Shown here: positions 4,745-59,613 of the stretch, one piece after another | Position numbering within the stretch: the first letter of the stretch is position 1 | Layout: each line of letters starts with the position of its first letter | Source: Planctomycetota bacterium | Lineage (GTDB): Bacteria; Planctomycetota; B15-G4 | NCBI GenBank assembly: GCA_029259745.1 | Contig: JAJDEO010000013.1 | Location: 1-64,000, forward strand | Length of the DNA stretch: 64,000 nucleotides | Direction of reading: 5' to 3' | Notes under the pieces: model-generated | Told to the model about the DNA's origin: nothing | The model's input: only the letters and a program-made list of their open reading frames with translations | Database searches by the model: none | Position numbers and translations under genes: made by a program

Positions 4745-4938
4745 GGCCGAAGAGTCGACGTCGCTTGGATCCGACATCTTTGCTGATACAGCCTCTTTGC
4801 TGACACGACGACCGACTCCCGACCAGCGCAACGAAAGCGTTTCCGCCACAAGCTACGATGCTTCACACAAAGGGAAGCTCGTCGGCATCTTACTTCCGCT
4901 CGACGCTTCAGACTTCGAACCCTCCCGGAGGATTAGCC

Positions 4939-5265: not shown

Positions 5266-5316
5266 GCGACAAGGTCCGCGATACACCGCAAGCGACGGAA
5301 TCGTCTGCACCGATCG

Positions 5317-9994: not shown

Positions 9995-11248
9995 ATGAAG
10001 ACCTCCATCATCTCACGCCTGGCGCTGTCGACTGTCGCCGCGCTGGCGCTTGCTGTCCCCGCGTCGAACGCCCAGTGCTTCGGCGACGACAACCTCGACA
10101 ACGGCCCATGCTGCGGCCTCACGCAGGCCAACCTTCCCGACTTCCCCGGCGTCCAGATGGGCGGACTGGGCGTCTGTTGGGATGCCTGCGCGGTGGTCGA
10201 CAAGAACAACATCCGCGTCGAGTGGGGCACCCTGAACCAGACGGTCTGCGGGCAGTACGTCACGCCGCTGCGCGTCATCGACGGAGCCACCGGCACGATC
10301 CTGCTCGACGGCCCGATGACGCTCGACTACTCCCGCACGTGGATCGAGATCGACCCGACCGGCATCGCGCATCAGGTCTGGCGCTTCGTCGCGAAGGTCG
10401 ACCTGACGGCCACGGCACCCGCCGGCGCCGTGCCACCGTGCCCGGTGCCGCTCAACCTCGTTCAGAACCCGAACGCCACGGCGTTCTTCTACGGGTACCT
10501 CGACTACGTCGACTGCCAGACCACGCCCGGCTTCGGTCCGCGCAACGCGCTCGTGCTCTACCACCCCTGCGACCGCTTCATGCACACGCCGGGCTTCTCG
10601 AGCCAGCCGGGTGCAGCTCACGGCGATGACGCGTTCGCGATCGTTGCGCCGCACAACGCCGCCCAGCCGTTCACGCCCGTGAACCAAAAGGCGCCCGGCG
10701 GTCCGGTCATCGAAGGCGCGACGCGCAACGTCTCGCCGTCGCCGCAGGTCTGCTTCGTCGAAGACCAGGTCTCCGTCGGATCGATCGCCGCTCTCGCCGC
10801 GGGTTGCCTCTGCACCGTGCAGAAGAACCCCAAGCAGCACACGATCCGTGACTTCAACGCCATGACGACCTGCCCGTCCCCCGTCGGCGTCCCCGGCGAC
10901 TGGGACAGCCAGGCCGTCAACTTCCCGACGCTGCCCTGGTTCGAGATGGTGACGACGAGCATCGGCTTCTGGAGCACGCCCGGCCTCTACCCCGGTGAAG
11001 AATCGGCCTGGGCCGACGAGGGTCTGTTCATCCACCAGGACGTCTGCCAGGGCTCGTTCATCGAGATCAAGTACGGCGGCTCGACGAACAAGGGCTGGGA
11101 CGCCCTCTCGTTCGCGGGCAACCAGCTCGGCTCGTTCACGGACATCGCCGACAACTGGTCGGCACCGCTGTTCGGCCCCTACAACCTGCCGATCTTCGGC
11201 AGCTCGCAGCCGACCGATCGCGTCATCCACGTCAACCTCGCGCCCTGA
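9995..11248 (+). CDS. secreted Cys-rich hypothetical protein
   Basis: Strong RBS AAGGAGAGG. Signal peptide MKTSIISRLALSTVAALALAVPASNA. No recognisable domain. Confidence 0.6.
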   Translation: MKTSIISRLALSTVAALALAVPASNAQCFGDDNLDNGPCCGLTQANLPDFPGVQMGGLGVCWDACAVVDKNNIRVEWGTLNQTVCGQYVTPLRVIDGATGTILLDGPMTLDYSRTWIEIDPTGIAHQVWRFVAKVDLTATAPAGAVPPCPVPLNLVQNPNATAFFYGYLDYVDCQTTPGFGPRNALVLYHPCDRFMHTPGFSSQPGAAHGDDAFAIVAPHNAAQPFTPVNQKAPGGPVIEGATRNVSPSPQVCFVEDQVSVGSIAALAAGCLCTVQKNPKQHTIRDFNAMTTCPSPVGVPGDWDSQAVNFPTLPWFEMVTTSIGFWSTPGLYPGEESAWADEGLFIHQDVCQGSFIEIKYGGSTNKGWDALSFAGNQLGSFTDIADNWSAPLFGPYNLPIFGSSQPTDRVIHVNLAP

Positions 11249-11270
11249 AGCAGGCTGAGGACTGACACCC

Positions 11271-11305
11271 GAGGGCATCGACCGCCACGCGCGGTCGATG
11301 CCCTC
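11271..11305 (+). terminator. perfect 15-bp stem-loop (GAGGGCATCGACCGC-CACGC-GCGGTCGATGCCCTC)
   Basis: Begins 23 nt after stop TGA 11246-11248 and is followed by a T-containing stretch. Confidence 0.55.
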
Positions 11306-11336
11306 GCTCATTGTCCGAAACGGTTAGAGTCGGGTC

Positions 11337-11870
11337 ATGTCGACGACCCGACTCGAGAAAGACGGCAAGCCCAGCCTGACGCGCCTACGGCGCACGCGCC
11401 CCGATCTCGAGCTTCGCCCGACGCGGCTGCGGGCGATCGTCGGCATGGGCCACGCATTCAGCAGCGGCACCCTGTTCGGCTACTTCCTGGTGCTCGCAGT
11501 CGACATGCTCATCACGGAGCGTGCTCCGAAGGACGACGAGCTCTGGCTCCCGGTCGTCGCCGCCGCAGCGGCGTTCGTGGTGGGCGCGATCTTCTCCGTC
11601 ACGATGGAGCGTTTCGGACAGCTCGGTCTCGTGGGCGACAAACTCATCGTCACCTTCCGAAACCTCGAGAACCCGGCAGTCGTCCCATGGGACACGATCG
11701 ACCAGGAGCGCACGCGTCGTGGGTCGCTCCTGCACTCCCTCTTCGGGCACCGGCGCATCGTGCGCATCGACGAGCGCCCGCTGTACATCCCGCGCGCCTT
11801 CTACTCCGACGACACGTTCGAGGGCTTCCTCGACGACTGCGAACAGCACATCCGCTCGAACGTGAGCTGA
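11337..11870 (+). CDS. membrane protein with bacterial PH-like (bPH_2/DUF304-like) domain
   Basis: Two predicted TM helices (LFGYFLVLAVDMLI, VVAAAAAFVVGAIFSV) followed by a roughly 90-aa soluble domain. The start is uncertain and an internal Met is possible. Confidence 0.45.
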   Translation: MSTTRLEKDGKPSLTRLRRTRPDLELRPTRLRAIVGMGHAFSSGTLFGYFLVLAVDMLITERAPKDDELWLPVVAAAAAFVVGAIFSVTMERFGQLGLVGDKLIVTFRNLENPAVVPWDTIDQERTRRGSLLHSLFGHRRIVRIDERPLYIPRAFYSDDTFEGFLDDCEQHIRSNVS

Positions 11871-11873
11871 CCG

Positions 11874-14495: not shown

Positions 14496-14694
14496 TTTCG
14501 AGTCGTCCAGAGAGGCCGCGAGGGGCCGGCAATGTATCAGCGTGCGTCGGCGCTGGGGAGGCAACACACATCAGCGCTCTCGGCGTACACTTCGTGTCAG
14601 CTCCGCGACTCTCTCCCGATCTTCGCGGCGCGTCGGTCACCGCGGGCGCGGTCGCCGACACCCACTCTCCCGAAACCCGCAAAGAGCGTTCTCA

Positions 14695-16209
14695 ATGATC
14701 TCGAGACTACGCATCACGTCACTTCTCGTGCTCGCCGCAGCCTTCAACCCCGCCGCTGCGCAGGACGAAGAGCCCCGCGACATCCGCATCGATCACCACT
14801 TCGACTCCGGATGGGTCAGCAACGACACCGATTCCGAAGCCGTCATCATCGCCTTTCCCGTTCACATCCAGACCGCGCGCTCTCTGCGCCTCTACTTCGA
14901 CGACATCCAGCTGTCGGGCAACACGTTCGACGGGACCGGGTCGACCCTGCGCATCACGGCGCTGCGCGACGACGCGATCCAGTCCATGAACGCCGATCAC
15001 GTCGCGCAGTGGCAGAACTCGAGCTGCTACTTCAACGGCAACGCGGTGATGGTCGAGGTGATCGCCCAGCCCGGCACCGGGCCCAACCGCGTCGCGCTCG
15101 AGTCGATCGACATGGGCCTTGCGTGGAATGAGTACGAGTCGATCTGCGGCGTCGACGACCGCCAGCCGTCGAACGATCCACGCGTTTCGCGTCTGCTGCC
15201 TGTGGGCTGTACGTCGTGGCTCATCGACGATTGCGGCAAGTGCTACCTCACGGCAGGTCACTGCGTCGGGTTCATCAACGCCGTCGAGTACAACGTGCCG
15301 TTCTCGACCTCGGGTGGCTCTTGGAATCATCCGGGCCCCGAGGATCAGTACGCCGTCGACCCCGCGTCGATCCAGTCGAACGGTGGCGGCGGCGTCGGCA
15401 ACGACTACGCCTACTTCGGCACGTTCGCGAACTCGAACACGGGTCTGACGGCCTTCGAGGCTCAGGGTGATGCGTTTGAACTCGTTGCTCCGCCGAGCAC
15501 GACGTCTGGAAACACGATCCGGATCACGGGCCACGGTACTGACAGCACGCCGAACTCGACCTACAACCAGGTGCAGCAGACGCACGTCGGCCCGCTCGTC
15601 GGCGCGAGCACGTCCTCGCTCCAGTACGCAACCGACACGACGGGCGGCAACTCCGGCTCGCCCGTGATCTGGGAGCAGACCGACCAGGCGATCGGCATTC
15701 ACACGCACGGCGGCTGCTCGAGCGGTGCCAACAACGGCACGGCGTTCACGCAGAGCGGACTGCAATCGGTACTCAACAACCCACAGGGCGTCTGTGCACT
15801 CGGCTCGACGAGCGGTGTCTTCAGCGACCTCGGGTTCTCGAAGGACGGCTTCTTCTTCGGTGCGCCGGAGCTCGCGGGCTGCGGCTCCCTCCAGCCTGCC
15901 TCGGCGATGACGCTCACGCTCGCGATGCCGTTCAACCTCAACGGCCTCGTCGCCACGCGTTTCATCGGCCTCGCGCAGATCAACGCACCGTTCAAGGGCG
16001 GCACGCTCGTGCCCGCCCCGACGATCGTGCTTGGCGGCCTTCCGCTCGAGAACAACGGTCCGCCGGGCGCCACACTCATCGTCGACGCCATCTGGCCTGC
16101 CGGCATCCCGTCAGGCACCGAGATCTTCATCCAGGACTGGGTGAACGTGCCGTTCGCCCTCGGCGACGAACTCGTCGCGTCCAATGCGCTGAAACTCACG
16201 GCCCCCTGA
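14695..16209 (+). CDS. secreted trypsin-like serine protease with conserved C-terminal sorting-like domain (CTD family member 1)
   Basis: Signal peptide MISRLRITSLLVLAAAFNPAAAQ. Catalytic His in CYLTAGHC and Ser in GGNSGSP. The last roughly 85 aa (FIGLAQINAPFKGGTLVPAPTIVLGGLPLENNG...WPAGIPSGTEIFIQDW...SNALKLTAP) are homologous to the C-termini of four other proteins in the window. Confidence 0.8.
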   Translation: MISRLRITSLLVLAAAFNPAAAQDEEPRDIRIDHHFDSGWVSNDTDSEAVIIAFPVHIQTARSLRLYFDDIQLSGNTFDGTGSTLRITALRDDAIQSMNADHVAQWQNSSCYFNGNAVMVEVIAQPGTGPNRVALESIDMGLAWNEYESICGVDDRQPSNDPRVSRLLPVGCTSWLIDDCGKCYLTAGHCVGFINAVEYNVPFSTSGGSWNHPGPEDQYAVDPASIQSNGGGGVGNDYAYFGTFANSNTGLTAFEAQGDAFELVAPPSTTSGNTIRITGHGTDSTPNSTYNQVQQTHVGPLVGASTSSLQYATDTTGGNSGSPVIWEQTDQAIGIHTHGGCSSGANNGTAFTQSGLQSVLNNPQGVCALGSTSGVFSDLGFSKDGFFFGAPELAGCGSLQPASAMTLTLAMPFNLNGLVATRFIGLAQINAPFKGGTLVPAPTIVLGGLPLENNGPPGATLIVDAIWPAGIPSGTEIFIQDWVNVPFALGDELVASNALKLTAP

Positions 16210-16229
16210 TCGTCCCCATCTGGGGACGA
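16210..16229 (+). terminator. hairpin TCGTCCCC-ATCT-GGGGACGA directly after the protease stop
   Basis: Perfect 8-bp inverted repeat starting 1 nt after TGA 16207-16209. Confidence 0.45.
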
Positions 16230-16581
16230 GACGCCGCGTCCGGGGTCCGCTCCTGGCAGCCTGTTGAAGAACTGCTCCGAGTGGGACGTGCGTGACCGAG
16301 TGAGCCTGTGCCAGTGTGGGAACGAGACGAATCGGTGGATTCGTCGAGACTCCCGCGCTCGCACAGTCGCGCTCGGGTGCGTGCAGCGCGCCGGATGAGT
16401 TCTTCAACGGGCTGCTGGCGCGGCATCTTGCAAGTCGCCCCGGCGTTTCCTTAACAACGGCGTCATCGAGCGATCCCGCACGACACCGCAGAGCTCCCGA
16501 AACAGGCTCTGAATCGTCCTGCAGCGTTGCGTACCGTGGGGGTGCGTTGGCATCGGGAATCGCGAAGACCGGGAGGCGACG

Positions 16582-17130
16582 ATGGACGATGTGTATCTGT
16601 GGTCGGCGGTAGGCGGCGGAGGGCTTCTCATCCTCCAAGTGCTGCTGATGCTGATCGGTGGCGACGACTTCGACGGCGAAGGTGACATTGACGTCGACGG
16701 AGGTGGCTCGACGCTCTTCTTCAAAGCGCTGAGCCTCAAGACGATCGTCGCGTTCTTCACCTTCTTCGGCTTGGCCGGAGTGTGGTCGACGGGAAGCGGC
16801 TGGTCGACAGGCTCGTCACTCGCACTCGCGAGCATCACCGGCATGCTGGCGTTCTTCGTCATCGGCTGGGTCATGAACGCGCTGATGGAGCTGCAATCGA
16901 GCGGCACGATCCAGCTCGAGGACGCCATCGGGCAGACGGCCGACGTCTACCTGCGGATCCCAGGCAAGCACAAAGGGCACGGCAAGGTGACGGTGACGTG
17001 CGGCGGACGCACGCACCAGGCCAAGGCCGTCACGTCGGGTGAAGAGATCCCGACGGGTCGATCAGCGCGCATCGTGGGGATGTCGAGTCCCGGCACGCTG
17101 GACGTCATCGCACTCGACGAGGAGACCTGA
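16582..17130 (+). CDS. NfeD-family membrane protein (OB-fold C-terminal domain)
   Basis: RBS GGGAGG. TM helices plus a C-terminal beta-barrel segment (KGHGKVTVTCGGRTHQAKAV). The stop lies 1 nt before the flotillin start, the typical nfeD-flotillin arrangement. Confidence 0.7.
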   Translation: MDDVYLWSAVGGGGLLILQVLLMLIGGDDFDGEGDIDVDGGGSTLFFKALSLKTIVAFFTFFGLAGVWSTGSGWSTGSSLALASITGMLAFFVIGWVMNALMELQSSGTIQLEDAIGQTADVYLRIPGKHKGHGKVTVTCGGRTHQAKAVTSGEEIPTGRSARIVGMSSPGTLDVIALDEET

Positions 17131-40625: not shown

Positions 40626-40802
40626 CCCGGATCATCCATTGACGATCGTCGCGAAGTCGCAGCTAGGCCTTGCTGGCAAAGCGATGCGAGGGTTCTGACC
40701 GGAGGCGGCCCATTTTGGCCGTTGAGGATCAGAAACGTCGCTTCGACGCCGCCAGGAAGGATCGACATGCGACCGCAGCAGATCGTCCGCGGATGATCCG
40801 GG
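40626..40802 (+). repeat. MITE-like repeat, copy B (about 177 bp, full-length)
   Basis: TIRs CCCGGATCATCCATTGACGATCGTC ... GATCGTCCGCGGATGATCCGGG. It is the best-preserved internal sequence (GTTCTGACC...GAGGATCAGAAACGTCGCTTCGACGCCGCCAGGAAGGATCGACATGCGACCGCAGCAGATCG). It sits between divergent genes and ends 36 bp before ATG 40839. Confidence 0.7.
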
Positions 40803-42117: not shown

Positions 42118-42263
42118 CCGGGTCATGGACGATCTGCTGCGGTCGCATCTGGATCCTTTCTGGCTGCGTCGAAGCGACGTCTCTGATCCTCAATGGCCCT
42201 CGCATCGCCTTTCCAGCAAGGCCCAGCTGCAACCTCGCGACGATCGTCCAGGAATGACCCGGG
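42118..42263 (-). repeat. MITE-like repeat, copy C (about 146 bp, reverse orientation)
   Basis: CCCGGGTCATGGACGATCTGCTGCGGTCGC ... GCGACGATCGTCCAGGAATGACCCGGG. It is preceded by TAG as in copies F and G. Confidence 0.7.
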
Positions 42264-48613: not shown

Positions 48614-49240
48614 TCAGGCTCGCGGTTTGCCGAGCACCCAGGTCGTCATGCACCGCAGACCGGCAACGTTCGTCGTCTTGATCGGGTCGAGGAGTTCACC
48701 GCCGAGCCGACGTGAGTGACCGAGCAAGTCGTTCTCGTCGACGAGGTAGCGCTGCGAGCCATCGGGCAACTGGAACCAACCCGGTTGCGCCGGGACGACG
48801 TGGACGCGTTTCTCGATCCCGATGGACGACGCCAGGCGCGACCAGAACAGCCCGCCCTCGGCGAGCACGCGCCAGCACTCGTCGAGACACGCAACGAACA
48901 CGGCACGCGATGCACTGAAGTGCAGCACGGCATTGCAGATGACGACATCGAAGGCCCCGTCGTCGAACGGGAGCTGCTCGAGCGCCGCGACCTCGAAGCG
49001 TGCGTTCGGCCTGCCCGCGAAGCGCTCTCGAGCCTCGGCGACCGCCTCTTCGCTGCGGTCCACTCCCACGACATCGAAACCGGCCTGTGCGAGGTAGTCC
49101 AGGTTGCGGCCCGCGCCACAGCCTGCGTCGAGCACGCGCATCCCCGGGACGATCCGCCCGCGCAGGAGCTGATCGAAGAGATACACATCGATTGAACCGA
49201 AGAGGTCGCGCAGGCCCTCGGGCGGCAATGGTGTGGACAA
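48614..49240 (-). CDS. class I SAM-dependent methyltransferase
   Basis: Motif [17 protein letters not shown] and post-I DVVGVD. The start is uncertain: TTG 49240 (GGAG 6 nt upstream) is preferred over the GTG at 49339, whose N-terminus is not protein-like. Confidence 0.55.
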
Positions 49241-49323
49241 TCGATGCTCCGTTCGCTCGAGAGGCGGACATGCGACACAGATGGCACATTTGCGTGGCAG
49301 CGGTCGACATGGTGCTGTGACGT

Positions 49324-49941
49324 GTGGCCGATGACCCACCGGGAGGAGAGAACATCGACGACCCCATCACGAAGAACGTCTTCATCGTCAAAGAGCACAT
49401 CGGGATGTTCAAGGCGGCAAACAACTTCGATATCTACGATCCGACTTCCGGCAAGATCGTGATGGAGTGCCGCGAGGAGTCCCTCGGCGTCTTCACGAAG
49501 TTCCTGCGCTTCACCGACTACAAGCGCATGACGCCCTTCGACATCCGCGTACGTACGGCGGATGGGCGGCAGGTCGTGCGCGTAACGCGCGGCGTGTCGT
49601 TCTTCCTCTCGAAGGTCGACGTCTTCGACGAGACCGACGCGTACATCGGCGGGTTCCGTCAAAAGTTCTTCTCGATCGGCGGACGCTTCACGATCCTCGA
49701 TCCCCACGAGCGTCCGGTCTGCGAGCTCAAGGGTAAGTGGACGGGCTGGGACTTCCGCTTCCTCGCCGGCACGAAGGAGCTCGCCCACGTGTCCAAGAGG
49801 TGGTCCGGCATGGGCAAGGAGATGTTCACGTCGGCGGACACGTACGTCCTCGAGATCGCCGACGACGTGGCGCCCGACGATGACGCACGCCCGCTGATCG
49901 TCGCGGCCGTGATGTGCATCGACATGGTTCTCAAGGAGTAG
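49324..49941 (+). CDS. scramblase/LURP-one-like (tubby-fold) family protein
   Basis: [23 protein letters not shown]...[17 protein letters not shown] matches the PF03803/DUF567-type fold. Only a GTG start is available in frame. Confidence 0.5.
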
Positions 49942-50177
49942 TCCCGCAAGGATGGTGCGCCGAACATCACGTGTCGGACCGCTGGACATCACGTGTACGG
50001 TCGGCGCCATTGCGCCGCGCACCGTCGCCCAGGGCAGCGAACTTTTCTCCCGCGCGTCCCGCGCTCGAAGCCAGCCCCTCCTGGCGACTATGGGCACCGT
50101 CACCCTGGTAGACTCCGGCCCGTTGTTTCCCCCCTGGACGTCAGCGCGGCGCTCCAGAAGCATCCCGAGGAGTTCAT

Positions 50178-51167
50178 TTGATGAAGGCATTCGCCGGCAT
50201 CGCCGCAGCCGTGGCTCTCGCCGCGTCCGTGATGACCTCGCCCGTGTATGCGAACGACTCGGCCGTCGGCTCGACCCCTCCCGAGATCGAAGCCGTGAGG
50301 TGGTACAACACGATGCCACTCACCTTCGAGCAGTTGCAGGGACGCGCCGTACTGGTCGAAGTCTTTCGCACTTGGTGCGGCGCTTGTAAGAACCAAATCC
50401 CCTCCCTCAACTCCAAAGCGGAAAAGGGTCGGAAGGAGGGTTTGGTGATCATCGGCGTGACCGATGAACCTGCGGAGGTGGTCGATCAGTTCGTGGCGAC
50501 GTACCAGCCCACGTATCCGATCGTGATCACGAAGGACAACAGCTTCGAGCGTCATCTCGGGGTAAAAAGCTTCCCCACCGCCGCGGTGATCGACACCAAG
50601 GGTGACATCTCTTGGCTCGGACACTTCGGTTTCGAAGGCGCGGTCAAGAACGCCCAGAAGGGCGCCGATCGGTCCCCGCTCTGGCCCGAGCCGTTTGCCA
50701 AGGCCGAGAAGAAGCTGAACGATCACGACATGGCTGGCGCGTACGCCGAAGTCAGCAAGACGATCGAGAAGAAGCCGCTCGACGACGAGGAGGCGGCATT
50801 CGGCGCGCGCGCGAAGACGTGGCTCGAGTCGGAAGCCTCCACGGCGTTCACGCGCGCGAAGGCTCTCGTCGCCGCGGGCAGCGTCTACATGGCGATGACC
50901 AAGCTCGAACCATACGTCGACGGTGATGCCCCGTTCCCCGAGCACCAGGAGATGGTGACCTTCCTCGAGGAGCAGCGCAGCCGGGACGGATTCAAGGACG
51001 AGATGAAGGCCGGCGGCATGCTCGTCGAAGCCAACGATCTCGCCCGGAACAAGCGCACGGTCAAGGACGCCATCGAGATGTTCGAAGAGATCGTGAGGAC
51101 GTACGCGGGGACGGCTGTCGCCGACGTCGCACTCAATCGTCTCGACGAACTCGAGAAGTACCGCTGA
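50178..51167 (+). CDS. secreted thioredoxin-like (TlpA/redoxin, WCGAC) protein with C-terminal helical/TPR-like domain
   Basis: Signal peptide MMKAFAGIAAAVALAASVMTSPVYA. Redox motif FRTWCGACKNQ. The helical C-terminal half is YbgF/TPR-like. GC is locally about 10 points lower, with AAA/GTA/TTT codons. Confidence 0.75.
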   Translation: MMKAFAGIAAAVALAASVMTSPVYANDSAVGSTPPEIEAVRWYNTMPLTFEQLQGRAVLVEVFRTWCGACKNQIPSLNSKAEKGRKEGLVIIGVTDEPAEVVDQFVATYQPTYPIVITKDNSFERHLGVKSFPTAAVIDTKGDISWLGHFGFEGAVKNAQKGADRSPLWPEPFAKAEKKLNDHDMAGAYAEVSKTIEKKPLDDEEAAFGARAKTWLESEASTAFTRAKALVAAGSVYMAMTKLEPYVDGDAPFPEHQEMVTFLEEQRSRDGFKDEMKAGGMLVEANDLARNKRTVKDAIEMFEEIVRTYAGTAVADVALNRLDELEKYR

Positions 51168-51189
51168 CTGACGAATAGTTGCACCAAGA

Positions 51190-51246
51190 GAGGCTTCGAA
51201 CCTCTCCGACGACCGCCCCGCGAAGCCTGCGCTTCGCGGGGCGGTC
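51190..51246 (+). terminator. tandem hairpins: GAGAGG-CTTCGAA-CCTCTC, then perfect 16-bp stem GACCGCCCCGCGAAGC-CTGC-GCTTCGCGGGGCGGTC
   Basis: Starts 23 nt after stop TGA 51165-51167 of the thioredoxin-like gene. Confidence 0.6.
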
Positions 51247-51325
51247 GTCGTTCGCGGGCATCCACTTCGCCGGTCCACCACATGGACGAATCGACATCGA
51301 CACATGCGTACACACCTGAACAGCG

Positions 51326-51448
51326 CGGGTTCATGCACGATCGTCGCGAGGTTGCGGCTGGGCCCGCTGCGCATCGGGAAACATCGCTGCCGCGCTGCGA
51401 GGGAGGATTCAGAGGCGACCGCAGCAGATCGCCCGTGAATAATCCGGG
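51326..51448 (+). repeat. MITE-like repeat, copy D (about 123 bp, central deletion)
   Basis: CGGGTTCATGCACGATCGTCGCGAGGTTGCGGCTGGGCC ... GGCGACCGCAGCAGATCGCCCGTGAATAATCCGGG. It ends 54 bp before the start of the giant CHAT gene. Confidence 0.65.
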
Positions 51449-51502
51449 TTAACGTGAGACGCCGCTGCCGCGACGGCAGCGAGATATCTTGGGGGCAAGA
51501 TC

Positions 51503-54500
51503 ATGGCCGAGTACACCGTCGTCGGGGAACGCACGCGCAACGCCGAAAGCGCACTGCGACTCGACGGAACGACCATCTCCGTGGCGCGCGGAGTGCGCAT
51601 GCTCGGCGCGACGCGCGCCGGCGCGCACGAGACGAAGATCGAGATCGGGAAAGACGATCTCATCGAGGTGGAGTTCGACAACGGCTTCGTCCTCTGGACG
51701 ACCATCGACCGCCTCGAGCACGACACGCGCCAGGGTGCGACGCGCGGCGCCGAGGGCACGCTCCCGACGCGCTATCCCACGCCGGACGATACCGGCGAGC
51801 GCGGCTTCGTCGGCAACGTCATCCGCGCCCTCAAAGTGCTCAACTACGACCTTCCGAAAGAGGGCGCGCGTGCGGTTGCCGCGAAGGTCGAAGGGCAACT
51901 GGCGGGCGAGGGATTCCTGCGCATCGCGCGCGACGGCAGTCTGACGCCCGAAGCCCCCGCTGCGGACAACGCCGACAAGCCGGTGCTTGTCCTCATCCAC
52001 GGCACGGCCTCGGCGACGGCGAACGCCTACTCGGGGCTCTTCGAGACGAACAACAAGCTCTGGCGCGAGCTGCACGACCACTACGAAGGCCGCGTCTTCG
52101 GCTTCGAACACCGAACGCTCACGCAGAGTCCGCTGCAGAACGCGGCAGACCTGCTCGACGCCCTCCCGGCGGACCTCGAGCTGCACCTCGTCACGCACAG
52201 CCGCGGTGGACTCGTCGGCGACCTGATCGCGCATGGCCAGGTGCAGGGCGACATCTTTGCGCCCGACGACATCGAGCGCGAACTCGCCCACGCCTTCGGC
52301 AAGGGATCCTCGGCGTTCACCGAGCAACGCAAGCTCTACCGCAAGTACCAGCGCGCCATCGCCGCCAAGCGTCCGCGCGTCACGCGCTTCGTGCGGGTCG
52401 GTTGTCCGGCAGCCGGCACGACGTTGGCTTCGGGGCGCCTCGACACGCTCTTCTCGATCCTCGTCAACCTCGCCAACGGCATCCCGGGAATCGGTCCGTT
52501 CGTCGCGGCTTTCGGTGAACTCGTCGCGGCCGTCGCCAAGGAGCGCACCCAGACTGACGCCCTGCCCGGCCTCGAAGCCCAGCGCCCCACCTCCGCGTTC
52601 ATCCGCCTGCTGAACAGCTCGCAGCACGTCCTCGAGAGCGACCTCACGGTGCTCGCCGGCGACTCGGACGGCTTCATCAAGAACCTCGCCAACCTCTTCT
52701 TCTGGAAAGCCAACGACCTCGTCGTCGACACCCGCTCGATGGCCGGTGGCGCGACCCGGCGCGAGTACCTCTGGCACCTCGAAGAGAACCGCCACGTCAC
52801 GCACGTGAACTACTTCCGTCGCTCCGAGACGGCCTCGCTCGTCCAGCGCGCACTTCTGCGCACGGACGCCGGAACGGCGGGCTACGAGCGACGCGCGCGG
52901 AACAGTGCGATGCGCGGCGAGGTCGACGAGGGCAAGCCCGACGAGAAGGTCGATCAGACGGGCGTGGTCTTGCTGCCCGGCATCATGGGCTCGCATCTGA
53001 GCGTCGAGGACGGCAACCGCCGCAACCGCATCTGGCTCGACAAGTCGGACATCATGATGGGACGCGGGAAGCTGCTCCGCACGGGAGCCGCGACGGTGCA
53101 TCCCGACGGTGTCCTTCAAAGCGCCTACGACGACATCCGCGACAACTTCGTCGGGCACGACCTGCACGTCATGCCCATGGCGTACGACTGGCGCATTTCG
53201 CTGACGCGCGCCGCCGACCAGCTCAACGCGCTCGTCCGGCAGCGGCTCGAGGCCTCATCGGAACCTCTGCACCTGCTGGCCCACTCGATGGGCGGTGTCG
53301 TCGCGAGCCTGTTCATCGCACGCCACGACGATACCTGGCAGCGACTGCGAGCCGGTGGCGGGCGGCTTGTCCAAGCCGGGACACCGAACCGCGGTTCGTA
53401 CGTCATCCCGCGCATCTTCCAGGGCACCGAGAAGATGCTGCGCATGCTTGCCGGCCTCGACTTTCGTGCCGACACGAAGCAGTGGGCGACGTGGGCCACC
53501 GGCTGGCAAGGGGTGCTGGAACTCACGCCGCAGTTCGACGACCTCGACTTCTCGAAGACGCAAACGTGGAAGGACTTCGCGCCGCTTGCGCATCCGAGCG
53601 AAGCGCAGCTCCGCAGAGCTGGCAACATCTGGGAGATCTTGCACGAGCAGACGAAGAAGCTCGCCGATGAAGACGTTCTCTACGTCGCCGGCGGCCCCAC
53701 CGAGACGCCGATCTACGACCCGACCGCCGTGAGTGACGACAAGAGCGGCGCGCACCATGTCATCCGCTGGACCGAGCGCGGCGACGGCCGTGTCACCTGG
53801 GACTCGGGGATCCCGCCGCGTACTCGCACCTGGTACATCCCCGTCAAGCACGGCAGCTTGCTCAACGAGAGGCAGGCCTTCGACGGCCTCCGCGAGCTCG
53901 TCACCACGGGCGCGACGGACAAGCTCGCCAGCGAACCGCCACCGGCCTCGACGATGCTGCGGTCGGGCACCGAAGACGTCCCGGTGCTCGCCGACGACGA
54001 GCACATGCCGTTCATTCCGTCGGACGAGCAACTCGAGGCCGCTGCTCTCGATGCCGAGGACCCGACCGAACGCCGCGCGCGTCGTCGCCGCGACACGCCG
54101 CCCGTCACACTCTCGGTCGTGCACGGCGACCTGCGCTTCTCACGCCACCCGATCATGGCGGGCCACTACGCCGGCGACCCGATCGTGCACGCCGAAGCCG
54201 CACTCGACCGCTGCCTCGACGGGGCACTCCGCACGCAGCACCAGCTCGGCCTCTATCCCGGCGCGACGGGAACGGCCGAGATCCTCCTGAGCCCGCGAAG
54301 CGCTTTGCGCTCAGACCTGGCCGGACCGAGTGGCGCGATCATCCTCGGCCTCGGAAACGTCGGCGAGCTGACGCCAGGCGCCCTCACACGTTCGATCGAG
54401 GCGGGGCTGCTGCGCTTTGCACAGGCCGCCTGCGACCGTCCCCATTCTGCCGCGGGCCTGACCGTGTCGACGCTCCTGGTCGGGAGTGGCGAGGCCGGAC

Positions 54501-56836
54501 TCGCCGTCGCGCCGATCATCGACGCGCTGCTCGACGGAGTCGAACGCACGAATCGCGCCATCGCGAATCTTCCCCGAGACGACGAGGGCGCGTCGCTCCG
54601 TCAGCTCTCTCCGATCGCGCGCATCGAGATCATCGAGCTGTATCACGACATCGCTCTCGAGGCCCTCCACGCCCTGCGCGCCGCGCCAGCACGCAACGGC
54701 GTCACCATTCATCCCACGCTGATCGCACGCAGCGGTGGTCGCCGACGGGCGCGCGCATCAGCGCCGGCGGGTTGGTGGACGCGCCTGTCGATCGAAGCCT
54801 CGCGCGACGAGAAGTGCGCCGACCGCGTCACGCTCCGATTCACGTCGCACGGCGAGCGGGCGCGGGCCCGCGTCAGCGACGTGTGCCTGCAAGAACGCCT
54901 CGTGAGTCAGGTGCTCGCCGAGACGATGCGCAACCAGGCCTCGGCGACGGGACACGTTCCGCAGGCGCTCTTCGAGCTGCTCGTGCCGTGTGACCTCAAG
55001 GCCGGCGCCGCCGACCAACGCGACATCCAACTCGTGCTCGACGAGACCTCGGCGAGCTACCCGTGGGAGCTGCTCGTCGACCGCAACTCCGCCGGCGATC
55101 GGCCGATCGGCATCGGCGCGGGGATGCTGCGGCAGCTGCGTGTGAAGAGTCCACCGCTCGTCCACCATCCCGAGAACCACAGTGCGCTGGTGGTCGGCGA
55201 CCCGCCGTCGAACTTCCCGGCACTCCCGGGTGCGCGACGCGAGGCCCAGGCCGTCGCCGCGACGCTCTCGGATCGCGGCTGGGACGTCGTGACGCAGATC
55301 CGCAGCAGCGATGACGCCACCGATGTCTCGGCGTCGAGCGTCGTGCGCGCCCTGCTGACGCACGACGCACGCATCCTCCACCTCGCCGGCCACGGCATCC
55401 ACGACGCCAACGACCCGCGCAAGTCGGGGCTCGTCCTCGGTGGCAGCCCGAACGATCCCAAGGACCCGCCGGTGCTCGTGACGGTCGAGGAGATCGCGCA
55501 GATGCGCACGCAGCCCGAGGTCGTCTTCATCAACTGCTGCCATCTGGGACGCATCGAATCGAACTCGCCGTTCCCGGAACTGGCGTCCAACCTCGCGGCC
55601 GAGTTCATTCGCGCGGGCGTAAAGATCGTGGTGGCTGCGGGCTGGGCCGTCGACGACCGCGCCGCGAAGACGTTCAGCGAAACCTTCTACGAGTGGATGC
55701 TCGGCGGGGCCGACTTCGGCACGGCGGTTCGCCGCGCGCGCGAAGCCACGTACGACCAGTTCAGCGAGTCGAACACCTGGGGCGCCTACCAGTGCTACGG
55801 CGACCCCGGCTTCCGGCTGTCGATGGACCTCGAGGTTCGCGCACTCGCGCAAGACACGTCACGCCGACGCACTCGCTTCGTCGACCCCAGCGAGATCGCG
55901 ATCGCGCTCGACAACATCGTGCACACCGCATGCGTCGATACGTCGGACAAGGAGAAGGAAGGGCTCGCCCGCTGGCTCGAGTCGCTCACGTCGGCGGCCG
56001 AGGACGCGGGGTGGGAAAGCGACCCGGACGTCCTCATCGGCCTCGCGCGTGCGCATGGCGAGCTCGGCAATCACGAGATGTGCATCGCGCTGACCGAACG
56101 CGCACAGAGGCTCGAGGCCGGTCGCGTGACGCTGCACGACATCGAGCAACTCGCCAACCATCGCGCGCGCGTCGCGTTGTCATCGCGCGACGCGAAGCTC
56201 TTCGAACGCGTCATCGGAGATCTCGAGGCGCTGATCACGACGCACGGCGCAACGGCCGAGCGCAAGTCGCTCTTGGCTTCGACGTGGAAACGTTTCGCGA
56301 TCCTCCAGATCAGCAAGGACGCCTCGCGCAAGGCCGTGCGCAAGGCGGTCTGCGCCATGACGCAGCGATACATCGAGGCCACGGCGCTCGACGCGCCTCA
56401 GTGGTTCTACCCGGCGACGAACGCACTCCTCGGCGTGCTACTGCTCGGCGGCCCGTGGGCGCGCGCGCCGCGCAAGAGCACCGTGGCCCGCGAGATCTGG
56501 GACGCACTCGACGGGTGGGCGAAGCGCGAGACGTTCGAGACGAACTTGCGCCGTGCCGAGGACAGCCTTCCGAACGACGGGCACCAAGACCTCTGGGACG
56601 CCCTCGCGTCCCCGGAACTCGCGGTAGTGAAGGCCCTCGCGGACGATGCGTTCGCCAAACGATCTCAGCAGATCGCCGCCCGCTATCGCTCGGTGCTCGC
56701 TCTGTACGGATCACAGCGCGAGATCGGTTCAGTCGCCAACAACTGGGACTTCGCTCTGAACGCCGCCAAGGCGCTTGACGAACCTCAACTCATCCGCGAC
56801 ATCGCGCAACTCCAGCAGCTTCTCCAGCGCCCCTGA
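51503..56836 (+). CDS. giant (1777 aa) multidomain protein: two PGAP1/LCAT-like alpha/beta-hydrolase (lipase/esterase) domains + CHAT (caspase-like) peptidase domain + helical/TPR-like C-terminus
   Basis: Domain 1 VLVLIHGTASA...LVTHSRGGLVGDL. Domain 2 VVLLPGIMGSHL...LLAHSMGGVVASLF, an AHSMGG nucleophile elbow. CHAT HGxxD near the end of ILHLAGHGIHDANDP and the Cys dyad region VVFINCCHLG. C-terminal helical repeats. Single uninterrupted ORF. Confidence 0.85.
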   Translation: MAEYTVVGERTRNAESALRLDGTTISVARGVRMLGATRAGAHETKIEIGKDDLIEVEFDNGFVLWTTIDRLEHDTRQGATRGAEGTLPTRYPTPDDTGERGFVGNVIRALKVLNYDLPKEGARAVAAKVEGQLAGEGFLRIARDGSLTPEAPAADNADKPVLVLIHGTASATANAYSGLFETNNKLWRELHDHYEGRVFGFEHRTLTQSPLQNAADLLDALPADLELHLVTHSRGGLVGDLIAHGQVQGDIFAPDDIERELAHAFGKGSSAFTEQRKLYRKYQRAIAAKRPRVTRFVRVGCPAAGTTLASGRLDTLFSILVNLANGIPGIGPFVAAFGELVAAVAKERTQTDALPGLEAQRPTSAFIRLLNSSQHVLESDLTVLAGDSDGFIKNLANLFFWKANDLVVDTRSMAGGATRREYLWHLEENRHVTHVNYFRRSETASLVQRALLRTDAGTAGYERRARNSAMRGEVDEGKPDEKVDQTGVVLLPGIMGSHLSVEDGNRRNRIWLDKSDIMMGRGKLLRTGAATVHPDGVLQSAYDDIRDNFVGHDLHVMPMAYDWRISLTRAADQLNALVRQRLEASSEPLHLLAHSMGGVVASLFIARHDDTWQRLRAGGGRLVQAGTPNRGSYVIPRIFQGTEKMLRMLAGLDFRADTKQWATWATGWQGVLELTPQFDDLDFSKTQTWKDFAPLAHPSEAQLRRAGNIWEILHEQTKKLADEDVLYVAGGPTETPIYDPTAVSDDKSGAHHVIRWTERGDGRVTWDSGIPPRTRTWYIPVKHGSLLNERQAFDGLRELVTTGATDKLASEPPPASTMLRSGTEDVPVLADDEHMPFIPSDEQLEAAALDAEDPTERRARRRRDTPPVTLSVVHGDLRFSRHPIMAGHYAGDPIVHAEAALDRCLDGALRTQHQLGLYPGATGTAEILLSPRSALRSDLAGPSGAIILGLGNVGELTPGALTRSIEAGLLRFAQAACDRPHSAAGLTVSTLLVGSGEAGLAVAPIIDALLDGVERTNRAIANLPRDDEGASLRQLSPIARIEIIELYHDIALEALHALRAAPARNGVTIHPTLIARSGGRRRARASAPAGWWTRLSIEASRDEKCADRVTLRFTSHGERARARVSDVCLQERLVSQVLAETMRNQASATGHVPQALFELLVPCDLKAGAADQRDIQLVLDETSASYPWELLVDRNSAGDRPIGIGAGMLRQLRVKSPPLVHHPENHSALVVGDPPSNFPALPGARREAQAVAATLSDRGWDVVTQIRSSDDATDVSASSVVRALLTHDARILHLAGHGIHDANDPRKSGLVLGGSPNDPKDPPVLVTVEEIAQMRTQPEVVFINCCHLGRIESNSPFPELASNLAAEFIRAGVKIVVAAGWAVDDRAAKTFSETFYEWMLGGADFGTAVRRAREATYDQFSESNTWGAYQCYGDPGFRLSMDLEVRALAQDTSRRRTRFVDPSEIAIALDNIVHTACVDTSDKEKEGLARWLESLTSAAEDAGWESDPDVLIGLARAHGELGNHEMCIALTERAQRLEAGRVTLHDIEQLANHRARVALSSRDAKLFERVIGDLEALITTHGATAERKSLLASTWKRFAILQISKDASRKAVRKAVCAMTQRYIEATALDAPQWFYPATNALLGVLLLGGPWARAPRKSTVAREIWDALDGWAKRETFETNLRRAEDSLPNDGHQDLWDALASPELAVVKALADDAFAKRSQQIAARYRSVLALYGSQREIGSVANNWDFALNAAKALDEPQLIRDIAQLQQLLQRP

Positions 56837-56879: not shown

Positions 56880-57224
56880 TCAGTCGAGCAGGTCGCCGTA
56901 GGCATCTTCGTGGAATCCGACCATCCACGTCTTGCCCTTGCGGAAGGCCGGCGCGCGCAGATTGCCGGACGGTCCGATGACGACCTTCTGCGCCGCTTCG
57001 CCGAACACGTCGTCGCCCTTGAACTCGAGCACCTTCTTGCCGCGCGCGACGACGAGTCGTGAGGCGCCTCCGAAGAGGGTTTCGAGGTCGTCGGCGCCGT
57101 AACGCTCTTTCGTGGCGTTCACCGTCTCACGGACGGTGACGTCCCGGCCTTCAAGGAAGGCGTCGGAACGCTTGCAGCTCGTTCAGCCCTTGCGGTGGTA
57201 ATACCAATCGATGCGCTTGGCCAT
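56880..57224 (-). CDS. ArsC/Spx/YffB-family thioredoxin-fold protein with in-frame TGA at the catalytic Cys position (candidate selenoprotein; alternatively a nonsense pseudogene)
   Basis: ATG 57224 with RBS GAGGGAG. MAKRIDWYYHRKG-[TGA 57183-57185]-TSCKRSDAFLEGRDVTVRETVNATKERYGADDLETLFGG...GPSGNLRAPAFRKGKTWMVGF. The TGA replaces the first Cys of the family's CxxC (CTSC in Spx) motif. A GCCUUC-CUU-GAAGGC hairpin lies about 21 nt downstream. Confidence 0.5.
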
Positions 57225-57385
57225 GTGCTCACTCCCTCTCTGTGGGTGTCGGTGACAACAAGCGCCAGGAATAGCATGTTCCCCACACCGCCGCGACGGC
57301 GCAGCTCAGGCGTGAATCATGGCGTCTCGCCGCCATCTGTCGTCATCCGCCGACCTCGCGTTGACGCGGCCCTCCACACGGCCGC

Positions 57386-58288
57386 ATGATTGCTCCCATG
57401 ATCGAAGTGCGAGAGCTGCACAAGAACTATGGCGACCTCCATGCCGTCGATGGCGTGAGCTTCGAGATCGCCGCCGGCGAAGCGTTCGGGCTGCTCGGAC
57501 CCAACGGGGCTGGCAAGTCGACGACGATCCTCATGATCGTGGGTGCCCTCGCCCCAGACAGCGGCCAGGTCATGCTCGACGGACAAGTCGACCCGACGCG
57601 CGCCGAGGTGCGCCGCAAGGTCGGCATCGCGCCTCAGGACCTCGCGATCTACGACGAGCTCACGGGCAGCGAGAACCTCGCCTTCTTCGGCAAGCTCTAC
57701 GGGATGCGCGGCGCCAAACTCGCCGAGCGCGTCGACTGGGGGCTCGAGTTCGCTGGCCTCGAAGACCGCCGCGCCGACCGCGCCGCCGGTTACTCGGGCG
57801 GCATGAAGCGACGCCTCAACCTTGCCTGCGCGCTCATCCATGCGCCGCGCATCTTCTTCTGCGACGAACCGACCGTCGGCGTCGATCCTCAATCGCGCAA
57901 CCACATCTTCGAGAGCATCGAAGGCCTCAAGCGCGACGGCTGCACGCTGATCTACACGACGCACTACATGGAAGAGGCCGAGCGCCTCTGCGACCGCGTG
58001 GCGATCATCGACAGCGGCAAGGTGCTGGCCGTCGACACGCCGGCCGCGCTTGTCGATCAACACGGCGGCGCCTCTATCGTCGAAGCCGAGTTCACGGAAG
58101 CGCCGCCGCCCGACCTCCTGCAGCGTGGCACGTTCGCCGACGGCTGGCTCAAGCTCGAAACCGACCGTCCGATCGAGGCGATCGCGGCGCTGGGCAAGGG
58201 CGGCGCCGACATCGCCAACCTGCGTATCCGCCGCCCGAATCTCGAGCGGGTCTTCCTGCACCTCACCGGCCGGAGCCTGCGCGACTGA
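57386..58288 (+). CDS. ABC transporter ATP-binding protein
   Basis: Walker [10 protein letters not shown], signature YSGGMKRRL, Walker [14 protein letters not shown]-loop. Translationally coupled (ATGA-like overlap) to the permease. Confidence 0.9.
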
Positions 58289-59613
58289 TGGGACCGATCC
58301 TGACGCTGGCACTCAAAGACGTGAAGCTCGTGGTGCGCGACAAGTTCGCGCTCTTCTGGCTCTTCGCCTTCCCGCTGATCTACGCGCTGTTCTTCGGCGC
58401 CATCTTCGGTAGCGACGATGGTGACGGCTCGCGCGGCCGCATGGGCGTCGCGATCGTCGACGACGACGGCTCGCAGGCCTCGCGTGACCTCGCCGCGCGG
58501 CTTGCCGACCACTCGGCTCTGCGCGTCGACCGCGTGTCCGAAGGCGACGACGCCGCGCCACTCCTGCACTCGGTCGAAGACGCTCGCGACCTCGTGCGCC
58601 GCGGCAAACTCGCCGCCTACATCCAGATCCTGCCCGGCTTCGGCGAGACGCCCTGGGGCATGTTCGGCGGCGGCGGCGACCCGATGATCGAGGTCGGCAT
58701 CGACCCGTCACGCACGGCCGAGGCAGGCATGTTGCAGGGCGTGATGATGGAGTCGCTGTTCGGCGGCATGACGGCGCGCTTCGGCGACAAGGACTGGCTG
58801 CTCGAACAGACCGCGTCCGCGCGCGAGGACATCGCGGGCGCCGCCGACCTCAGCGGCGTCCAGAAGCTCGTCTTCTCGAACTTCATGTCGGCCCTCGACG
58901 TCTTCTTCACGCAGATCGACTTCGATTCTCTCGAGGGCGACGGCCCGGGCGTCCTGGCCGGCGGCGCCGACATGGTGAACGTGGTCGAGGTCACCCGCGA
59001 GCGCGGCAACGTCCCCCGGTCGACGTTCGAGATCACCTTCCCCACCGCCATGATCTGGGGCCTGATGAGCGTCGCGCTGACGTTCGCCATCACGATCGTC
59101 CGCGAACGCACCCAGGGCACGCTACTGCGCCTGCGTGTCGCCCCCATCTCCGGCGCCCAGATCCTCGCCGGCAAGGCGCTGGGATGCTTCCTGATGTGTC
59201 AGGTCGTGATGATCTTCCTCATGGCCGTGGGCACTCTGGCGCTCGACATCCGGGTCGCGAGTGTCCCGCTGCTGATCGTCGCGATGGTGAGCATCGCCTG
59301 CTGCTTCACCGGCTTGATGATGGTCGCCTCCGTCACCGGCAAGACGGAGCAAGCCGTCGCGGGTGCATCCTGGGGACTGATGATGCCGTTTGCCATGATC
59401 GGTGGCGGGATGATCCCACTCATCGCGATGCCGTCCTGGCTGCTCACGCTCAGCAACTTCAGCCCCTTCAAGTGGGGCATCATCGCCATGGAAGGCGCGA
59501 TCTGGCGCGGCTTCAGCATCGCGGACATGGTCATGCCGTGTACGATCCTGATTGGCCTCGGCGCAGCGTTCTTCGCCGTGGGTGTCTGGATCTTTCGGCG
59601 CGGCGAGGGGTGA
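58288..59613 (+). CDS. ABC-2 type transporter permease
   Basis: N-terminal TM, a large extracytoplasmic loop, then 5 TM helices (ABC-2 topology). Confidence 0.8.
   Translation: MGPILTLALKDVKLVVRDKFALFWLFAFPLIYALFFGAIFGSDDGDGSRGRMGVAIVDDDGSQASRDLAARLADHSALRVDRVSEGDDAAPLLHSVEDARDLVRRGKLAAYIQILPGFGETPWGMFGGGGDPMIEVGIDPSRTAEAGMLQGVMMESLFGGMTARFGDKDWLLEQTASAREDIAGAADLSGVQKLVFSNFMSALDVFFTQIDFDSLEGDGPGVLAGGADMVNVVEVTRERGNVPRSTFEITFPTAMIWGLMSVALTFAITIVRERTQGTLLRLRVAPISGAQILAGKALGCFLMCQVVMIFLMAVGTLALDIRVASVPLLIVAMVSIACCFTGLMMVASVTGKTEQAVAGASWGLMMPFAMIGGGMIPLIAMPSWLLTLSNFSPFKWGIIAMEGAIWRGFSIADMVMPCTILIGLGAAFFAVGVWIFRRGEG

Follow-up and report, generated by a model that had tools for sequence, protein, structure and literature searches.

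What would a bacterium do with a single polypeptide in which two lipase-like hydrolases are joined to a CHAT caspase-like protease? The question is raised by a gene at 51503..56836 (+ strand, stop codon included) in a stretch of 64,000 nucleotides from a Planctomycetota bacterium (contig JAJDEO010000013.1 of assembly GCA_029259745.1, positions 1 to 64,000), which is referred to here as the window and whose numbering is used throughout. The gene encodes a 1777-residue multidomain protein, which an initial annotation had placed among bacterial conflict or defence systems. Its domains, the genes linked to its relatives and the published precedents for each step of a possible mechanism lead us to propose, with slightly more confidence than doubt, that its product acts in the cytoplasm as a suicide effector which a signal switches on, and that it belongs to a TIR-linked (Thoeris-like) immune system with everything on one polypeptide chain.

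Innate immunity in bacteria, plants and animals makes recurrent use of TIR signalling, of caspase-like proteases and of lipases, and the family described here gathers all of them in or around one protein. This two-lipase CHAT family is uncharacterised, widespread and experimentally tractable. In the literature accessible to us, no paper describing its two-lipase/macro-fold/CHAT/TPR-S architecture was found, nor is it covered by the eLife 2021 Death/TRADD-N paper, and a literature search found no paper mentioning DUF7379, the family's signature domain.

Reading frame, domain architecture and conservation

The reading frame is uninterrupted and begins at the ATG at 51503, the earliest start codon past the upstream in-frame stop; homologues can be aligned from M1 onward. 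The list of open reading frames (ORFs) and the translation agree with the initial annotation in giving a single ORF of 1777 residues, with the motifs THSRGG, AHSMGG, HLAGHG and NCCHLG at residues 231, 593, 1293 and 1344, respectively. A 100% identical protein (P0001) has been called on one public contig, and the closest relatives score ~2000 bits, far above chance. Sequence inspection found no signal-peptide-like N-terminus, and no transmembrane segment was found in the 1777 residues (Kyte-Doolittle maximum of 1.69 over 19-residue windows); as judged from these features, the protein is cytoplasmic and has no secretion marker.

Pfam matches confirmed the two hydrolases, the CHAT domain and the helical tail that had been called at first. 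By these and the structural comparisons given below, we count the protein among the members of four families (CHAT, DUF7379, LCAT-like and TPR-S) and of the macro-fold superfamily; neither PADLOC nor NCBIfam holds a family covering the whole protein. Its structure was predicted in two halves with AlphaFold2 (AF2) from 44-sequence alignments, the N-terminal half reaching a predicted local distance difference test score (pLDDT) of 84.8 and a predicted template-modelling score (pTM) of 0.56, and the C-terminal half a pLDDT of 86 and a pTM of 0.74. A full-length search returned 1779 matches at E<=1e-5, and the details of homologues given below are taken from 120 that were listed among them. Conservation was read from an alignment of 61 homologues at 34-56% identity, to which all statements on invariant residues refer.

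In this alignment the three catalytic centres, S233/D405/H434, S595/D761/H783 and H1297/C1346, are intact and invariant, which answers the doubts raised earlier about the triads of the hydrolases and about a possible substitution of the CHAT His or Cys. Both putative sensor modules contain invariant residues as well. Purifying selection thus acts on them and on all three enzymes, and for the enzymes it would be as expected of effectors.

The lipase half

The N-terminal module comprises residues 1 to ~150 (51503..51952, + strand) in the AF2 model of the N-terminal half, and not ~80 residues as first thought. A five-strand beta unit plus helix (residues 1-76; pLDDT ~85 over residues 1-70) is followed by a small alpha/beta unit. 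Pfam, NCBIfam and PDB sequence searches gave no match for this module, in which G8, R38 and R100 are the only invariant residues.

Serine hydrolase 1 (residues ~160-470; 51980..52912, + strand) is a lipase-like alpha/beta hydrolase of the DUF7379 family (Pfam PF24096; 128 bits against a cut-off of 33, E 5.6e-37), a family with no characterised relative. Its nucleophile S233 (codon 52199-52201), within THSRGG, is positioned by the AF2 model at a strand-turn-helix nucleophile elbow (strand 226-232, helix 235-246). The residues H232-S233-R234-G235-G236, D405 and H434 are invariant, D405 and H434 being the putative triad partners of S233.

Serine hydrolase 2 (residues ~486-803; 52958..53911, + strand) resembles lecithin-cholesterol acyltransferase (LCAT) and lysosomal phospholipase A2 (LPLA2) in Pfam, PDB profile and Foldseek comparisons. 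The Pfam LCAT match (PF02450; 28.6 bits against a cut-off of 21, E 1.1e-6) covers only profile positions 85-183 of 392, and the PGAP1 match is weak (E 0.09). A family profile searched against the PDB retrieved LPLA2 (4x90, E 6.2e-9) and LCAT (~8e-8), and Foldseek retrieved LPLA2 (4x92, E 4.8e-9, target-normalised template-modelling score 0.57-0.60) and the lipase Tle4 of the type VI secretion system (T6SS; 4r1d, E 1.8e-7). The nucleophile S595 (codon 53285-53287), within AHSMGG, lies, like S233, at a classical strand-Ser-helix elbow in the AF2 model, and H594, S595, G597, D761 (within GDGRV) and H783 (within HG) are invariant. GDGRV is presumably the Asp motif of LPLA2 and LCAT, so that hydrolase 2 has the GDG.V motif in common with these enzymes, besides the nucleophile elbow AHSMGG and the fold; unlike them, it is a bacterial, cytoplasmic enzyme embedded in a chain of several domains. 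By analogy, we propose that it may act on membrane phospholipids.

The two halves are joined by a disordered linker (residues ~804-865; 53912..54097, + strand) that has no secondary structure in the AF2 model, with pLDDT <50 at residues 824-830. Within it R820 (codon 53960-53962) is present in 61 of 61 homologues, the neighbouring columns being variable or gapped, and relatives devoid of the lipases start just past this residue. Because clan-CD proteases related to CHAT cut after Arg, we regard R820 as a candidate Arg-specific cleavage or autocleavage site.

The macro-fold, CHAT and TPR-S half

The region of residues ~866-1150, initially annotated as a long linker, consists instead of a macro-fold domain and a beta-rich connector. 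The former (residues ~866-1062; 54098..54688, + strand) belongs to the macro-fold superfamily that includes Peptidase_M17_N (PF02789), and M17_N is its nearest sequence family (E 0.057 to 3jru, 3e-7 in homologues). G887, H888, D892, E898, Y918, G949-L-G951 and G954 are invariant, and the strongly conserved loops GH..GD...AE..LD and GLG.VGEL differ from the canonical macro motifs. The connector to the CHAT domain (residues ~1063-1153; 54689..54961, + strand), for which no family match was found, has four strands at residues 1067-1130 in the AF2 model and a WW.RL motif in which W1091, W1092 and R1094 are nearly invariant.

The CHAT caspase-like (clan CD) domain (residues 1154-1434; 54962..55804, + strand) matches PF12770 with 121.1 bits against a cut-off of 24 (E 8e-35), over profile positions 5-289 of 289. 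It shows a caspase-like fold with a His-Cys dyad placed after consecutive beta strands, the catalytic residues being H1297 (codon 55391-55393) and C1346 (codon 55538-55540), and is predicted to be a protease; H1293, H1297, G1298 and C1346 are invariant.

The chain ends in an all-helical tail (residues ~1460-1777; 55880..56833, + strand). The TPR-like helices recognised at first are indeed there, and belong more specifically to TPR-S ("sensor", PF20308), a predicted sensor of nucleotide signals; TPR-S is annotated in most listed homologues, with E values down to 5.4e-15 in relatives. In the tail R1556, Y1623 and W1698 are invariant and E1586, R1587, K1596 and R1597 nearly so. Its fold matches the TPR region of ASK1, and ASK1-type and TPR-S models hit the same protein in a neighbouring gene. 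The identification of the tail as TPR-S shifts the likely mechanism towards a signal-activated effector, and the tail is predicted, by analogy, to bind a messenger derived from nicotinamide adenine dinucleotide (NAD+) and made by a TIR protein.

A widespread accessory family and its modular variants

The domain combination, which had been thought unusual, is that of a large, conserved and widespread family. Nearly all of the 120 listed homologues have the same architecture of ~1750-1850 residues, and in 12 of them (~10%) a TIR_2 domain is fused to the C-terminus, giving a length of ~2130 residues; P0097 of Geobacter grbiciae is one such TIR-fused form. The macro-CHAT-TPR-S half alone retrieved 1481 representative clusters at E<=1e-30. 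Relatives occur in at least 581 of 185,579 species representatives, among Pseudomonadota, Bacteroidota, Acidobacteriota, Nitrospirota, Chloroflexota, Desulfobacterota, Verrucomicrobiota and other phyla, the closest in these species genomes being that of a Woeseiaceae metagenome-assembled genome (51% identity). Plasmid or chromid copies were found in Ensifer, Paracoccus, Azotobacter and Burkholderia, annotated only as "CHAT domain-containing protein".

The two-lipase CHAT family is therefore a patchy accessory family and not a one-off fusion, and its patchy, sometimes plasmid-borne distribution indicates that it is not a housekeeping one. In particular, the orthologues do not show it to be a conserved housekeeping lipoprotein-maturation enzyme, an outcome that had been named as fatal to a role in conflict. 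A phage origin was also considered and rejected, as no relative was found in 2.9 million viral contigs (IMG/VR) or 50,697 phage records (INPHARED).

Several relatives depart from the common architecture. A 936-residue macro-CHAT-TPR-S protein without lipases is encoded on a Rhizobium plasmid, flanked by two giant proteins containing TIR domains, of which the one scanned is a TIR-nSTAND1-WD40 protein. A 1028-residue LCAT-macro-CHAT protein is followed by SIR2 and endonuclease genes, and relatives of intermediate length have an N-terminus with only DUF7379 or LCAT lipase domains. The TIR-fused, caspase-linked, lipase-less and solo forms offer natural controls.

TIR and protease genes next to relatives

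Gene neighbourhoods were compared by calling ORFs in 86 loci, clustering them and annotating the recurrent clusters; 43 loci with at least 5 kb on both sides make up a well-flanked set. TIR domains were sought with a hidden Markov model (HMM) built here, which recovered exactly the 12 Pfam-annotated TIR fusions. A TIR domain is fused to the family member or encoded within 10 kb of it in 30 of the 86 loci, and the matches are densest close to the family member, with 15 of 40 no more than 1 kb away and none at 8-10 kb. Thoeris ThsB models recognise some of the adjacent TIR proteins (2e-48 and 4e-35), and short ThsB-like TIR genes directly adjoin the family member in several loci. In P0005, a relative of 53% identity, the beginning of the big gene is overlapped by a gene for a TIR-WD40 protein.

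The commonest neighbour encodes a clan-CD protease and usually lies directly upstream on the same strand. Most of these proteases are C14 caspases of ~265 residues and a few are C11 clostripains; 21 of 80 GTDB loci have a gene of either kind no more than 1 kb away, and ten of the proteins match the PADLOC "caspase" model. In the well-flanked set, TIR domains are found at a distance of up to 5 kb in 30% of the loci and caspase or C11 genes at up to 1 kb in 33%; 14% of the loci have both kinds of neighbour. Both partners occur in eight loci, for instance in L081 of Nitrospira sp. RSF3, where the big gene comes after a caspase gene and is itself followed by a TIR-receiver gene; we regard this as the clearest candidate operon. 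The same locus (1891-16779) is a TIR-dense island, with three further TIR domains upstream of the tandem genes.

Other recurrent neighbours are SIR2, endonuclease, nSTAND1 and SNF2/ZorD-like helicase genes, restriction-modification (R-M) systems, Fic and insertion sequence (IS) elements, and DpdE-like neighbours are also present; the Azotobacter plasmid copy adjoins a type I R-M system, Fic and IS elements. A search for co-conserved neighbours, as first suggested, has thus been fruitful, with TIR (in part ThsB-like), caspase or clostripain, SIR2, nSTAND and R-M genes enriched at homologue loci, and the defence role assigned to the window gene is supported by this guilt by association. The NTPase partner envisaged at the same time was not found. 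A partner conserved in the closest clade was considered and rejected, given that the large unannotated proteins encoded upstream (in L091, L093 and others) are mutually dissimilar and also unlike those of the window.

Two further kinds of neighbour deserve mention. Peptidoglycan hydrolase genes lie directly downstream in L029, L060, L063, L070 and L085, and also in L089 (8803-9420); they include Peptidase_M15-like genes, some of which overlap the stop codon, GH108 with PG_binding_3, and a muramidase, and their recurrence suggests a lysis module, possibly also controlled by CHAT. In about ten loci (L003, at 13565-14941; L045, L056, L081 and others), separate proteins of ~458 residues combining MAP3K_TRAF_bd and TPR-S are encoded near family members. 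That of L003 has a weak N-terminal match to a PADLOC TIR effector model, and the whole group may consist of paralogues that sense the same messenger.

Proposed mechanism

In the mechanism that we propose, the TPR-S tail, possibly together with the macro-fold domain, would bind an NAD+-derived messenger released by a TIR protein upon infection. Ligand binding, probably accompanied by oligomerisation, would turn on the CHAT domain, which would cut the partner protease (caspase or clostripain) in those loci that encode one next door, and perhaps its own linker after R820. The two lipase-like serine hydrolases would then attack membrane phospholipids, and the cell would die or arrest before the invader replicates.

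Each step has a published precedent. In Thoeris systems, His-ADP-ribose acts on the Macro-domain effector of type II, N7-cyclic ADP-ribose (N7-cADPR) activates the caspase-like protease of type IV, and cADPR activates the CMP-hydrolase-TPR effector ThsI of type VIII, for whose TPR a role in TIR signalling had been predicted earlier (bioRxiv 10.64898/2025.12.03.692087). SAVED-CHAT processes PCaspase in type III-B CRISPR systems (bioRxiv 10.1101/2024.10.24.620036), and phospholipase effectors such as CapV are described as common in cyclic-oligonucleotide-based antiphage signalling systems (CBASS; PMC12480259).

A more far-reaching version is advanced only tentatively, and we hold it to be on the doubtful side: the family would be the effector of an undescribed Thoeris-like pathway in which messenger sensing by TPR-S and/or the macro fold is combined with an initiator-executioner cascade. 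The cut at R820 would free a double-lipase warhead, the caspase or clostripain, where present, would be matured, and solo copies would be wired in trans to unlinked TIR genes, so that a single protein would destroy both membrane and proteome. If the proposal of a TIR-linked effector is true, the family would provide a new effector class for Thoeris-type immunity, a second CHAT-to-caspase cascade, outside CRISPR, and a test case for the ligands of TPR-S and M17_N-like macro domains.

A number of observations weigh against this proposal. The TIR HMM found no TIR domain across the 64 kb of the window, no caspase or other partner gene lies beside the window copy, and its neighbours are housekeeping-like (Redoxin, scramblase-like, amidase, ABC-2 transporter and RsgA genes); the GC content of the gene (0.65-0.70) is that of the surrounding window. 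The gene thus stands solo, and its trigger would have to come from an unlinked TIR gene unless the tail senses something directly. The same is true of 51% of the well-flanked loci, which have neither a TIR nor a caspase or C11 gene, so a TIR gene in cis cannot be a necessity for signalling. The contexts of four of the closest relatives (50-56% identity) were examined, and three of them share no common partner. As to the sensors, the TPR-S match of the window protein (28.6 bits against a cut-off of 27.6, E 2.3e-6) is only 1 bit above the cut-off, the sensing of NAD+-derived signals by TPR-S is reportedly a prediction of Burroughs and Aravind (2020), from whose work the Pfam family stems, and its equivalence with the TPR of ThsI is our assumption. 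The macro-fold domain is closest in sequence to the N-terminal domain of leucine aminopeptidase (LAP; PF02789), which is not known to bind ADP-ribose, and its conserved loops depart from the canonical macro motifs. Among known defence systems, PADLOC recognised only BovA of Borvo, weakly and over the CHAT core (17.8 bits, E 3.3e-4, profile positions 509-645 of 711), and in the accessible part of the supplements to a systematic TIR survey CHAT, PF12770, PF24096 and PF20308 are unlisted and Thoeris carries no lipase or protease effector labels.

Alternative explanations

The absence of TIR and caspase genes from the window and from about half of the well-flanked loci would be consistent with a stand-alone sensor-effector, whose TPR tail binds an invader protein or peptide directly, in the manner of Rap-type or Avs-type repeat receptors, and thereby releases CHAT and lipase activity; nearby TIR and caspase genes would then be co-effectors or co-resident defence genes. 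Csx29, a fold match, uses its TPR for protein-protein contacts, and among the TIR proteins encoded nearby there are many giants of TIR-STAND-WD40 type, each of which could be a system in itself. We nevertheless consider direct sensing unlikely, in view of the match of the tail to the specific TPR-S family and not to generic TPR models, of the invariant or near-invariant R1556, Y1623, W1698, R1587, K1596 and R1597, which suit a small anionic ligand, and of the C-terminal TIR fusions and adjacent ThsB-like TIR genes, which correspond to a Thoeris layout. A variant of the TIR-linked effector concerns the macro-fold domain, which might be an enzyme that degrades an ADP-ribose (ADPR)-type messenger, as an off-switch comparable to the ring nucleases of type III CRISPR, or that removes protein ADP-ribose. 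The strict invariance of H888, D892, E898 and the GLG..G loop speaks for this variant, as does the fact that many macro domains of similar fold, such as Af1521, YmdB and MacroD2, are hydrolases; self-limiting effectors are known in cyclic-nucleotide immunity, according to bioRxiv 10.1101/2024.05.08.593097 and 10.64898/2026.09.16.751991. However, the domain shows a closer sequence relationship to the N-terminal domain of LAP, which is non-catalytic, and no canonical macro catalytic motif could be demonstrated, and we give the variant little credence.

The remaining explanations depart from intracellular immunity. The protein might have no part in conflict and be a physiological regulator that controls the turnover of envelope or lipids or takes part in regulated proteolysis, for instance in membrane remodelling under stress or in developmental cell death, its macro and TPR modules sensing endogenous NAD+ metabolites. 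Such a role would suit the native GC content, the housekeeping-like and redox- or lipid-flavoured context in the window (Redoxin, scramblase-like, FMN reductase and hopene-cyclase-like genes) and the recurrent M15, GH108 and muramidase neighbours, which could mean envelope remodelling; yet the patchy occurrence in many phyla, the plasmid copies next to R-M systems and IS elements, the variable neighbours and the linkage to TIR, caspase, SIR2 and STAND genes, all of them hallmarks of accessory conflict genes, make it improbable. The resemblance of hydrolase 2 to Tle4 and the frequency of lipases among interbacterial toxins could point to a secreted or contact-delivered antibacterial lipase toxin similar to T6SS Tle proteins, which happens to carry a protease domain. 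We regard this as very improbable indeed: contrary to the toxin reading of the initial annotation, if secretion was meant, the protein has no secretion marker, signal peptide or transmembrane segment and no PAAR, MIX, Rhs or LXG-type trafficking domain, and no VgrG, Hcp or immunity-gene family is among the recurrent neighbours. Its best fold match is to the intracellular-type LPLA2/LCAT enzymes, and TPR-S, macro modules and TIR fusions typify intracellular immune effectors. Membership of the Tle group was accordingly rejected.

Comparison with known systems

Under the preferred reading as a TIR-linked effector, the protein most resembles, by analogy, a Thoeris effector crossed with SAVED-CHAT/PCaspase. 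Like the type II Macro, type IV caspase-like ThsE and type VIII ThsI effectors, it would be an intracellular killing enzyme joined to a ligand-sensing domain; macro fold, TPR and a clan-CD protease, found among Thoeris sensors and effectors, are all present in it. Those effectors are activated by ADPR derivatives made by TIR proteins, and relatives of the window protein are either encoded beside ThsB-like TIR genes or have a TIR domain fused to them. In contrast, no described Thoeris effector has CHAT, two lipases, a macro fold and TPR-S in one chain of ~1800 residues, and the macro-fold domain here is M17_N-like and not a canonical ADPR-binding macro domain. Of the features that define Thoeris, candidates for the sensing domain (TPR-S, macro fold) and for the killing domain (CHAT, two lipases) are present; the adjacent TIR (ThsB) gene is missing from the 64 kb window and from about half of the family, and a TIR domain lies within 5 kb in 30% of the well-flanked loci.

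In SAVED-CHAT/PCaspase of type III-B systems, a CHAT protein fused to a sensor activates a separate small caspase-like executioner by cleavage, and in the family a gene for a caspase of ~265 residues or a clostripain lies within 1 kb in ~25% of loci, a gene order from which we infer a similar CHAT-to-caspase cascade. Here the sensor would be TPR-S and/or the macro fold and not SAVED, there is no CRISPR association, and two lipases are added. Csx29, the TPR-CHAT protein of type III-E Craspase, has an N-terminal TPR that docks gRAMP/Cas7-11, whereas TPR-S is C-terminal here; identity is 11-13%, and lipase and macro domains are additional in the 1777-residue protein. As neither gRAMP/Cas7-11 nor Csx30/31 was found in the window or among the recurrent neighbour families of ~80 loci, membership of Craspase was rejected. 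Borvo likewise consists of a single large CHAT-containing defence protein, BovA, the sole PADLOC match; a Borvo assignment was rejected, the match being limited to the CHAT core and the architecture not being common to both. Killing by hydrolysis of membrane phospholipids is established for CapV of CBASS (PMC12480259), but CapV is a patatin and not an alpha/beta hydrolase. Separase and ASK1 are similar only in the fold of single domains (10-17% identity) and have no pathway in common with the protein.

The locus in the window

The gene for the 1777-residue protein is preceded by a Redoxin-family gene (50178-51167, + strand). At 40 nt past the stop of the latter, two perfectly matching inverted arms of 18 bp enclose a loop of 6 nt (51208..51249, no strand assigned), a structure that is terminator-like but has no T-run; this hairpin suggests that the big gene may be transcribed on its own. 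Between the hairpin and the gene lies a copy of a dispersed intergenic repeat (51326..51450, + strand), 53 nt upstream of the start codon. Further copies were located with blastn at 1486-1651 (+), 40732-40802 (+) and 42123-42254 (-). The repeat is ~110-170 nt long and has the conserved core GCGACCGCAGCAGATCGYCCGTGAATNATCCGGG; three of its four copies have the same orientation and lie 19-53 nt upstream of unrelated + strand genes, the two others of these preceding, by 19-37 nt, genes for a VIT-VWA protein and a methyltransferase. No Rfam match was obtained for the repeat or anywhere in the window, and its identity with a known RNA was rejected on this ground; the hairpin pattern alone does not make a repeat family. 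The copy upstream of the gene that was first described as a miniature inverted-repeat transposable element (MITE) is there as a dispersed repeat, which could be a MITE or repetitive extragenic palindromic (REP) element, or a common promoter or leader.

A scramblase-family gene (PF03803; 49324-49941, + strand) lies ~1.5 kb upstream, beyond the Redoxin gene, and its proximity to a double lipase may be a coincidence. An FMN reductase gene and a hopene-cyclase-like gene are also found in the window. The minus-strand ORFs at 50100-51374 and 48646-50319 were discarded as spurious high-GC frames, having no Pfam match and conflicting with the + strand Redoxin gene.

Downstream of the gene, the candidate selenoprotein gene and the ABC exporter are present as originally described. 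The former is a small ArsC/Spx-like gene (56880-57225, - strand) with an in-frame TGA at the first Cys of a CxxC motif (MAKRIDWYYHRKG*TSCKR...). With Cys substituted at this position, its product has a weak match to Spx (3l78, E 0.009), and it is a plausible candidate selenoprotein. It is followed by a 764-residue ORF (57319-59613, + strand) that matches ABC-2 permeases only over residues 328-761 and whose start is probably wrong; a 300-residue ORF in another frame (57386-58288), which overlaps it, may be the real ATPase gene.

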